Of a stretch of 36,398 bases of DNA, positions 3,384 to 6,406 are shown piece after piece. The notes under the pieces were generated by a model. It worked only from the letters and a program-made list of their open reading frames with translations. It was not told the origin of the DNA and made no database searches. How positions within the stretch are numbered: position 1 is the first letter of the stretch; the number at the start of each line of letters is the position of its first letter. Origin of the DNA: a virus (lineage: Duplodnaviria > Heunggongvirae > Uroviricota > Caudoviricetes); the IMG/VR virus record IMGVR_UViG_2869965101_000006; one strand, given 5' to 3'. The translations under genes were made by a program, and so were the position numbers.

Positions 3384-3620
3384 ATGGGCAAAGAATATAA
3401 AACTCTCATTAACAAAGCACTTGAGCGTTTTTATTTTCGCTTAAGTGCATCAGGCGCTCATGCTGAACGTGCGGCCCGTGACTCATTGACCAGAGCAATC
3501 CGAAGTCTGTATGACGTGGCTTTTTACGCTGATGATCTGGATGCACTTAACGAACTTTCCGAGCTGATCTGTGCCGCAGTGGATTTGCCCCTATATTTCC
3601 AGACATCTGTTATCACTTAA
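3384..3620 (+). pseudogene. early-region ORF truncated by IS2; C-terminus now encoded by IS2 end sequence
   Basis: ORF runs into the IS2 terminal sequence at 3580; its last residues ([11 protein letters not shown]) are identical to the IS2-derived tail that also replaces the ogr C-terminus. Confidence 0.5.
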
Positions 3621-3844
3621 CCCATTACAAGCCCGCTGCCGCAGATATTCCCGTGGCGAGCGATAACCCAGCGCACTATGCGGATGCCATTCGTTATAAT
3701 GCTCGAACGCCTCTGCAAGGTTCTTTGCTGCCGTTAACCCGTCTGGTTTGGGCATGATACTGATGTAGTCACGCTTTATCGTTTTCACGAAGCTCTCTGC
3801 TATTCCGTTACTCTCCGGACTCCGCACCGCCGTGTTCTTCGGTT
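3580..3844 (-). mobile_element. IS2 remnant (one terminus plus 3' end of insD), about 265 bp
   Basis: 3580..3844 is identical to 33056..33320 of the full IS2 copy; the element is cut off by IS911 at 3845. Confidence 0.8.
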
Positions 3845-3916
3845 TGAAGTGGCACACTGAATTTGGCCACCTGAACAGAGGTGATATGCTCACCTCAGAA
3901 CAACACAGGTGCTCCA

Positions 3917-4219
3917 ATGAAAAAAAGAAATTTTAGCGCAGAGTTTAAACGCGAATCCGCTCAACTGGTTGTTGACCAGAAATACACGGTGGCAGATGCC
4001 GCCAAAGCTATGGATGTTGGCCTTTCCACAATGACAAGATGGGTCAAACAACTGCGTGATGAGCGTCAGGGCAAAACACCAAAAGCCTCTCCGATAACAC
4101 CAGAACAAATCGAAATACGTAAGCTGAGGAAAAAGCTACAACGCATTGAAATGGAGAATGAAATATTAAAAAAGGCTACCGCGCTCTTGATGTCAGACTC
4201 CCTGAACTGTTCTCGATAA
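3917..4219 (+). CDS. IS911 OrfA (HTH transposase subunit)
   Basis: 100-aa ORF with IS3-family OrfA features. Confidence 0.85.
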
Positions 4220-4609
4220 TCGGGAAACTCAGAGCGCATTATCCTGTGGTCACACTCTGCCAAGTGTTCGGGGTTCATCGCAGCAGCTACAGATACTGGA
4301 AAAACCGTCCTGAAAAACCAGACGGCAGACGGGCTGTATTACGCAGTCAGGTACTTGAGCTACATGGCATCAGCCATGGTTCGGCCGGAGCAAGAAGCAT
4401 CGCCACAATGGCAACCCGGAGAGGCTACCAGATGGGACGCTGGCTTGCTGGCAGGCTCATGAAAGAGCTGGGGCTGGTCAGCTGTCAGCAGCCGACTCAC
4501 CGGTATAAACGTGGTGGTCATGAACATGTTGCTATCCCTAACTACCTTGAAAGGCTGAACCGCCCCGGGAATCCTGGAGACTAAACTCCCTGAGAAAGAG
4601 GTAAACAGG

Positions 4610-4936
4610 ATGACTAAAAATACTCGTTTTTCCCCCGAAGTCCGTCAGAGGGCGATTCGTATGGTTCTGGAAAGTCAGGGCGAATATGACTCACAGTGGG
4701 CGGCAATTTGTTCCATTGCCCCAAAGATTGGCTGTACACCGGAGACTCTGCGTGTCTGGGTACGCCAGCATGAGCGGGATACCGGAGGCGGTGATGGCGG
4801 GCTCACCACCGCTGAACGTCAGCGTCTGAAAGAGCTGGAACGTGAAAATCGTGAACTGCGCCGCAGTAACGATATCCTTCGCCAGGCTTCCGCTTATTTT
4901 GCGAAGGCGGAGTTCGACCGCCTCTGGAAAAAGTGA
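4610..4936 (+). CDS. IS629 OrfA
   Basis: 108-aa [24 protein letters not shown]..., IS3-family OrfA. Confidence 0.9.
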
Positions 4937-5823
4937 TGCCACTGCTGGATAAGCTGCGTAAGCTGTACGGGGTCGGACCGGTATGCAGTGAACTACATAT
5001 TGCCCCGTCAACGTATTACCACTGTCAGCAACAGCGACATCATCCTGATAAACGCAGTGCCCGTGCGCAGCGCGATGACTGGCTGAAGAAAGAGATACTG
5101 CGCGTATACGATGGGAATCATCAGGTATACGGTGTGCGTAAAGTCTGGCGTCAGTTGTTACGGGAAGGTATCAGAGTGGCCAGATGCACTGTGGCACGTC
5201 TCATGGCGGTTATGGGACTTGCCGGTGTTCTCCGGGGTAAAAAGGTCCGTACGACCATCAGCCGGAAAGCCGTTGCCGCAGGCGACCGCGTAAACCGTCA
5301 GTTCGTGGCAGAACGACCTGACCAGCTGTGGGTGGCTGATTTTACTTACGTCAGCACATGGCAGGGCTTCGTCTATGTGGCGTTCATCATTGATGTGTTT
5401 GCCGGATACATCGTGGGGTGGCGGGTCTCATCGTCCATGGAAACGACATTCGTGCTGGATACTCTGGAGCAGGCGTTATGGGCCCGTCGACCGTCCGGCA
5501 CGGTCCATCACAGTGATAAAGGTTCTCAGTATGTATCGCTGGCCTACACACAGCGGCTTAAGGAAGCCGGATTACTGGCATCAACAGGAAGTACAGGCGA
5601 CTCGTATGACAACGCGATGGCGGAGAGCATCAATGGTCTTTACAAAGCGGAGGTAATACACCGTAAGAGCTGGAAAAACCGTGCAGAAGTGGAACTGGCC
5701 ACACTCACGTGGGTGGACTGGTATAATAATCGACGATTGCTGGAAAGGCTGGGCCATACTCCTCCGGCAGAAGCAGAAAAAGCTTATTATGCTTCCATCG
5801 GAAACGATGATCTGGCAGCCTGA
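4933..5823 (+). CDS. IS629 OrfB (DDE transposase)
   Basis: 296-aa ORF overlapping orfA, with integrase-core (DDE) region. Confidence 0.9.
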
Positions 5824-6406
5824 GTTCACAGATAAAACACTCTCCAGGAAACCCGGGGCGGTTCAGGCAGTTCGCCGTGACCGAGCCAAATCAGGTGTGG
5901 TGCGGTGATGTGACCTGTATCTGGACGGGTAAGCGCTGGGCGTACCTCGCCGTTGTTCTCGACCTGTTCGCAAGAAAACCAGTGGGCTGGGCCATGTCGT
6001 TCTCGCCGGACAGCAGGCTCACCATGAAAGCGCTGGAAATGGCATGGGAAACCCGTGGTAAGCCCGGCGGGGTGATGTTCCACAGCGATCAGGGCAGTCA
6101 TTATACGAGCAGGCAGTTCCGGCAGTTATTGTGGCGATACCAGATCAGACAGAGTATGAGCCGGCGCGGAAACTGCTGGGATAACAGCCCAATGGAACGC
6201 TTCTTCAGGAGTCTGAAGAACGAATGGATGCCGGTGGTGGGTTACGTAAGCTTCAGCGAGGCAGCTCACGCCATAACGGACTATATCGTTGGATATTACA
6301 GCGCACTAAGACCGCACGAATATAACGGTGGGTTACCCCCAAACGAATCGGAAAATCGATACTGGAAAAACTCTAACTCGGTGGCCAGTTTTTGTTGACC
6401 ACTTCA

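Follow-up and report, generated by a model that had tools for sequence, protein, structure and literature searches.

Insertion sequences IS2, IS911 and IS629 at a 4455-bp deletion in a defective P2-related prophage of the Shigella boydii lineage

IS2, IS911 and IS629 are insertion sequences (ISs) of the IS3 family. IS911 was first described in Shigella dysenteriae, IS2 has a curated reference copy (IS2A) in Escherichia coli K-12, and elements of the IS629/IS1203 type are known from Shigella sonnei and E. coli O157. Copy-out-paste-in transposition normally regenerates the donor. In phage P2, the replication origin is located inside gene A. Deletions between homologous IS copies are a documented mode of loss in Shigella (PMC7373316), and a one-ended model has been proposed for deletions beside members of the IS3 family, IS629 among them (bioRxiv 10.1101/2023.06.07.543989, citing Kusumoto 2011 and Chandler 2015). 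In this study, we analysed a 36,398-nucleotide stretch of DNA (IMG/VR virus record IMGVR_UViG_2869965101_000006; hereafter the window, meaning the whole stretch) that contains a P2-related prophage in which sequences of IS2, IS911 and IS629 stand side by side at 3580-6406. This interval is very probably a fossil record of successive IS hits on a P88-like prophage located between btuC and ihfA in a Shigella boydii lineage. It is a case of ordinary IS decay of a prophage of that lineage, in which the elements are known and the process is textbook (PMC7373316). The locus has already been present in public genomes, back to 2005; our literature search found no paper on it and yielded only papers that treat decay through ISs in Shigella in general.

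Window 3580-3844 corresponds to nucleotides 1331 to 1067 of IS2, reversed, and is identical at 265 of 265 positions to the curated IS2A of K-12 MG1655, including the right terminal repeat. The joint at 3579/3580 is the precise right end of IS2. This 265-bp stub is 20% of the element; the left 1066 bp of IS2A, which contain orfA and most of orfB, are gone, and a complete element with a 5-bp target duplication is therefore not present. IS2 lies in a small early gene encoding a DUF4754 protein, of which codons 1-65 (to 3579) are derived from the phage and are followed by 13 codons in IS2 before the stop. The exact 78-aa DUF4754::IS2 fusion protein is recorded in 107 blocks of public assemblies. 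A second IS2 is found in the prophage at 33056-34382, in the same orientation as the stub. It is full (1327 bp, 99.2% identical to IS2A with one gap), and its insertion into ogr, the gene of the late activator, produced the 5-bp duplication CCCGT.

IS911 directly follows the IS2 stub. The element in the window starts with TGAAGTGG at position 3845, which aligns to the first base of the curated IS911A of K-12, and 3845-4555 rejoined to 5869-6406 gives a complete 1249-bp IS911. The rejoined element matches uninterrupted copies annotated as 'IS3-like element IS911' at many unrelated E. coli loci end to end with 99.8% identity. Its end arms, 3845-3871 and 6380-6406, are complementary and form an imperfect inverted repeat, and the element has the length of about 1250 bp and the 5'-TG...CA-3' termini of IS911. 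The orfA gene (3917-4219) is intact and matches Pfam HTH_Tnp_1, the orfB fragments match rve and rve_3, and the A6G slippery motif for the -1 frameshift between orfA and orfB was read directly and is intact at 4168-4174. The uninterrupted alleles described below encode a 389-aa OrfAB. Thus, in length class, terminal repeats, orfA/orfB arrangement and A6G motif the copy is the same as described IS911, whereas it differs from a typical IS911 in being split by IS629 in orfB and in having no 3-bp target duplication. It is flanked by GTT at its left end and AAC at its right end. A missing duplication is expected for a copy that ends at a deletion or recombination joint, and it is no argument against the identity of IS911. 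Since GTT and AAC are not a duplication, one of the IS911 ends is a secondary joint.

The element that splits IS911 is a complete IS629 of 1310 bp with 26-nt terminal inverted repeats that are 92% complementary, two frameshift-linked open reading frames (ORFs) that match an NCBIfam IS3 transposase (309 bits), and an ALIL pseudoknot. These features and the 3-bp duplication are the same as those of the IS629/IS1203 type. Full-length alignment gives 97.6-97.9% identity (a divergence of about 2.1-2.4%) to Stx-phage elements that were deposited under the name IS629, and 99.6% identity to E. coli copies, the closest of which PGAP names only 'IS3 family transposase'. GGC stands on both sides of IS629, and nine related loci in which IS911 is uninterrupted read ...AAAGGCAGTTCG... 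with a single GGC, so the empty site is directly seen. The sequence-only reading, made from the letters of the window without database searches, had proposed the boundaries of IS2, IS911 and IS629 and a complete IS629 flanked by a GGC duplication; alignments to IS2A and IS911A of K-12 and to deposited IS629 copies placed every boundary where that reading had put it. Its description of a 'triple-nested' structure holds in part: IS629 in IS911 is a true nest, but IS2 survives on one side of IS911 only and does not form a nest. The top E. coli matches to the whole interval are IS911::IS629 structures on O121 plasmids. These are not the same composite, since IS629 is inserted at another position in them, and they represent an independent event.

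Outside the interval, the two arms of the window (1-3579 and from 6407 onward) correspond to a prophage of which some E. coli strains have an intact copy, also at btuC/ihfA. In comparison with the prophages of E. coli 19AR1724 and GDSC2BY4G, in which the gene order is DUF4754, small ORFs, MarR, GPA and parM, the arms are collinear and exactly 4455 bp between them are missing in the window. Nucleotides 1-1066 of IS2 are also absent at the locus. The lost 4455 bp contained the last 15 codons of the DUF4754 gene, two small hypothetical genes, a MarR-type regulator, an ash fragment, a gene for a 121-aa protein, the gene for the 940-aa replication endonuclease GPA, and codons 1-118 of parM. GPA of the intact relatives matches Pfam Phage_GPA (PF05840, 438 bits) and phrog_91, 'nicking at origin of replication'. 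When the deleted proteins were searched by tblastn against the window, only the retained parts of DUF4754 and ParM were found, and this rolling-circle replication initiator, present in the intact relatives, left no trace. Codons 119-319 of parM are kept directly beyond the right end of IS911, and a possible ORF start is a TTG at 6392, inside the right inverted repeat of IS911.

Because GPA is lost and the P2 origin lies inside gene A, the initiator and presumably the origin are both gone, and the prophage would be unable to replicate. The earlier reading had stated that the far IS911 end abuts a truncated parM with no matching target duplication and that replication gene A is missing, and our comparison bears out both statements. 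It had also listed the absence of gene B after cox as a sign of defective replication. This absence is not diagnostic; the annotation of the intact P88-like relatives contains no product named P2 gene B either, although no direct search with gpB was made. The 'adjacent deletion' that it postulated is real, with the size given above from the two intact prophages, while the mechanism implied by that term is one of two possible routes. The coordinates of the features are collected in Table 1.

Table 1. Features of the IS-bearing interval and its borders (window coordinates)
Feature	Position	Strand	Evidence
Truncated DUF4754 gene	3384..3620	+	tblastn against intact protein: residues 1-65, 100% identity; Pfam DUF4754
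IS2 remnant: right-end (IRR) terminal 265 bp, with 3' end of orfB (insD)	3580..3844	-	Identity to IS2A
IS911, left part (nt 1-711): IRL, orfA, A6G motif, 5' part of orfB	3845..4555	+	IS911 matches; NCBIfam IS3-family hit
GGC target-site duplication flanking IS629	left copy 4553..4555, right copy 5866-5868		
IS629, complete, 1310 bp	4556..5865	+	Full-length matches, terminal repeats, Rfam, NCBIfam
IS629 orfA, 108 aa	4610-4936	+	ORF listing
IS629 frameshift pseudoknot	4891-5007	+	Rfam ALIL, 116 bits (gathering score 50)
IS629 orfB, 296 aa	4933-5823	+	ORF listing; overlaps orfA at 4933-4936
IS911, right part: duplicated GGC and nt 712-1249, 3' part of orfB, IRR	5866..6406	+	IS911 matches
5'-truncated parM	6407..7012	+	tblastn residues 119-319, 100% identity; Pfam StbA_N (partial) and ParM C-terminal domain
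parM partner gene (Plasmid_stab_B / ParR-like), intact, downstream of deletion joint	7017..7328	+	Pfam PF10784, 81.8 bits

Related loci were collected by exact look-up of the DUF4754::IS2 fusion ORF, the ORF spanning IS2 and IS911, and the truncated ParM ORF, which yielded 22 loci from about 19 NCBI assemblies. The phage/IS2, IS2/IS911 and IS911/parM junctions were present as exact 30-mers in all loci that span them (21/21); the 22nd locus is on a truncated contig on which the IS911/parM joint alone is visible. IS911 is uninterrupted in nine loci; in twelve, both junctions with IS629 are present. The filled state co-occurs with a second deletion of 3377 bp in the prophage, which is absent from the loci with the empty site. 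Over 13.6 kb, CP026762.1 and the window are 100% identical. Two S. boydii genomes, Sb227 (CP000036) and CDC 3083-94 (CP001063), likewise have all three outer junctions in identical form. CDC 3083-94 has the IS629 insertion, as in the window, whereas Sb227 has an uninterrupted IS911 and an intact head region and has lost int-C-cox by a different, IS629-associated deletion. Outside this lineage, megablast with each 200-bp junction found none of the three as contiguous sequence in 5426 complete E. coli genomes. Fifteen apparent matches to the IS2/IS911 junction consist of two pieces hundreds of bp apart and hence are not a contiguous joint.

The related loci also show other changes. In five loci of the Sb227 type, another IS629 copy replaces 2021 bp equivalent to window 1150-3170. 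This loss in the lineage with uninterrupted IS911 covers the integrase, the repressor and the cox-like gene, and represents independent decay of the same prophage. A third allele, found at three loci in two assemblies (CP026866.1 and CP026867.1), has no IS629 but an 81-bp deletion in IS911 orfB, equivalent to window 6246-6326, with a 10-bp overlap at the joint.

We propose the following history. IS2 would first have inserted into the small DUF4754 early gene, and IS911 would then have inserted into IS2 between its nucleotides 1066 and 1067. Next, a deletion that stopped precisely at the right end of IS911 would have taken 1066 bp of IS2 together with the 4455 bp of phage DNA. After the lineages had split, IS629 entered IS911 orfB and duplicated GGC, which inactivated the IS911 transposase gene and left both IS911 ends intact. 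Two points in this order can be read directly. IS2 was present before the IS2/IS911 joint formed, because it is broken at a precise IS911 end. IS629 inserted last and is the youngest event, because both empty-site and filled-site alleles exist among the related loci.

Some points weigh against this proposal. Neither the ORF look-ups nor megablast in the 5426 E. coli genomes revealed an intermediate, that is, IS911 in parM with GPA present, a whole IS2 at the site, or IS911 in a whole IS2. The product of recombination between two IS911 copies, the route that we favour for the deletion, is identical to that of an adjacent deletion made by transposase. In addition, the uninterrupted IS911 alleles could in principle have arisen by precise excision of IS629. 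Excision is, however, less parsimonious than insertion, because the loci with IS629 share the derived 3377-bp deletion and the empty-site loci are without it.

As for the deletion, the most likely route, which we favour with modest confidence, is that a second IS911 in direct orientation was placed in parM by local hopping and that homologous recombination between the two copies then removed the DNA between them. Recombination is favoured because copy-out-paste-in transposition regenerates the donor, because there is a precedent in Shigella, and because 14 of 17 full-length IS911 copies have no target duplication. These copies were sampled from species-representative, IS-rich Shigella and E. 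coli genomes (S. flexneri SFBU1023, E. coli ECMA0423 and others); only three had a duplication, of 3 or 4 bp, and most had unrelated sequences on each side, so exchange between IS911 copies is routine in such genomes. The two deletion routes are inseparable by sequence alone.

The other route, which is possible and which we regard as tentative, is a deletion made by the IS911 transposase itself. With the precedent of the model for IS3-family elements (bioRxiv 10.1101/2023.06.07.543989), one end would be cleaved and the strand transferred to a distant site in the same molecule in a 'sloppy', one-ended reaction, and subsequent processing, possibly via a protein of the IS-excision-enhancer type, would keep the IS and drop the DNA between the IS and the target. 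The new joint would then be either IS911/parM or IS2/IS911. Both IS911 ends are precise and have no target duplication, as in transposase-made joints, and no intermediate with two copies was found in the ORF look-ups of related loci. However, an extra processing step would be needed since the donor is normally regenerated, recombination between IS911 copies is evidently common from the proportion without duplication, and a sample of 27 IS911 flanks revealed no preferred target that could account for the sequences at the joints.

The flanks of IS911 have one further property. Positions 3835-3844 and 6407-6416 are inverted complements over 5 nt (CGGTT-IS911-AACCG) and at 8 of 10 nt over the longer stretch, which cannot be produced by a single simple insertion. 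They might mark an intramolecular joint made by transposase or a half-site preference of IS911, and would then favour the one-ended deletion, but we consider this very improbable; no enrichment of GGTT/AACC was seen at 27 distinct other IS911 flanks. Chance is probably the likelier explanation (roughly 4e-4 for this comparison taken singly, without correction for how many features were examined). Two other resemblances were also taken as chance. The 8-mer CCAACATC lies immediately beyond the breakpoint in IS2 and again immediately ahead of the one in parM, positions that do not fit a microhomology deletion. A 10-nt likeness shared by parM at its breakpoint and the DNA beside a different IS911 is not a parM homologue, and neither resemblance fits a model of the deletion.

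It is also conceivable that the joint between the IS2 stub and IS911 was made elsewhere and was brought in by recombination between dispersed IS copies, in which case the local loss would have come about as a side effect of some larger rearrangement. IS copies have heavily rearranged the genomes of Shigella (PMC7373316; PMC8072062), and the full IS2 in ogr offers a partner in the same orientation within the prophage. Nevertheless, both flanks belong to one prophage and keep the collinear order and the orientation that they have in the intact relatives, the contiguous IS2(1067)/IS911 joint occurs in none of the complete E. coli genomes searched, and the ORF spanning IS2 and IS911 was found only in this prophage context, all of which makes an imported joint highly unlikely. 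Finally, although IS-rich regions are a classic source of misassembly, the idea that the junctions are artefacts of collapsed or mis-joined repeats can be practically dismissed, since the same junction 30-mers recur in every spanning locus, in assemblies that include closed chromosomes and come from different projects and years, and the window agrees with CP026762.1 without a mismatch over the 13.6 kb.

The prophage itself is P2-related. The P2-type morphogenetic genes give Pfam matches to GPO, P2 capsid, GpR, tail S, V, W, J and I, and GPD. Between the intact relatives and both phage P88 and Xuanwuvirus P884B11, the early region (DUF4754 to parM, with GPA) shows 96-99% identity, and on this sequence likeness the prophage is assigned as P88-like (Xuanwuvirus, Peduoviridae) rather than P2 proper. 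The 'cox' of the earlier reading, a 92-aa gene, is only weakly Cox-like (phrog_575, E = 1e-7). Compared with P88/P884B11 and the intact btuC-ihfA prophages of 19AR1724, GDSC2BY4G and SE11, the window has the same site and gene order, and its arms are 96.5-99.7% identical. It differs from the intact relatives in the absence of the 4455 bp including GPA, in the 3377-bp deletion of the head/lysis region, in two IS1 copies and the full IS2 in ogr, and in split portal and terminase ORFs. The window is therefore a defective remnant of a P88-like phage and not a functional member; its integrase, repressor and most tail genes are kept.

The further lesions show that the prophage was already a decaying remnant, dead in several other ways. 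The second deletion, of about 3377 bp at 11901-11910, has a joint without an IS and with 8-10 bp of microhomology, CAGGGTGA. By this deletion, the M15 endolysin gene was joined to the N-terminal half of the gene for the GPO scaffold (fused ORF 11397-12314), and the genes for the major capsid, small terminase, head completion, tail X and holin are gone. Two identical 768-bp IS1 copies have 9-bp target duplications, GGGTTGAAT for 18010-18777 and CCGTCCTTC for 25676-26443; the invertible tail-fibre segment contains one of the copies, and the tail tube gene is the site of the other. The portal gene (8473-9525) is split into 240 and 97 aa and the large terminase gene (9525-11275) into 374 and 211 aa, whereas the proteins have 348 and 583 aa, respectively, in the intact relatives and in the Sb227-type loci.

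Two other genes were observed toward the ihfA side. A 1039-aa ORF (29605-32724) lies between gpD and ogr, a position that we take to be a cargo/defence hotspot of P2-type phages; the relative in 19AR1724 has a GapS6a-family gene there. This ORF had no match in Pfam, PADLOC, NCBIfam or PDB sequences, and it is present in five of the 5426 complete E. coli genomes, where PGAP annotates it as an 'MFS transporter' or as hypothetical. Just outside the ihfA-side end of the prophage, at 35202-36398, is a gene for an IS110-family (RNA-guided) transposase; the intact relatives have none there.

In conclusion, a single loss of 4.5 kb at an IS911 end removed the replication initiator, and presumably the origin, from this prophage and left its integrase, repressor and most tail genes in place. 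In annotation, this part of the defective P88-like prophage should carry the labels IS2 remnant, IS911::IS629, and pseudogenes for the truncated DUF4754 and parM. The outer junctions are fixed in every related assembly examined and occur in none of the 5426 complete E. coli genomes, which could allow their use as a lineage marker, and the IS629-filled and empty IS911 sites divide the lineage into sub-lineages. Little follows from the locus beyond such bookkeeping, and its value is that of a clean and datable illustration of the immobilisation of Shigella prophages by IS expansion.

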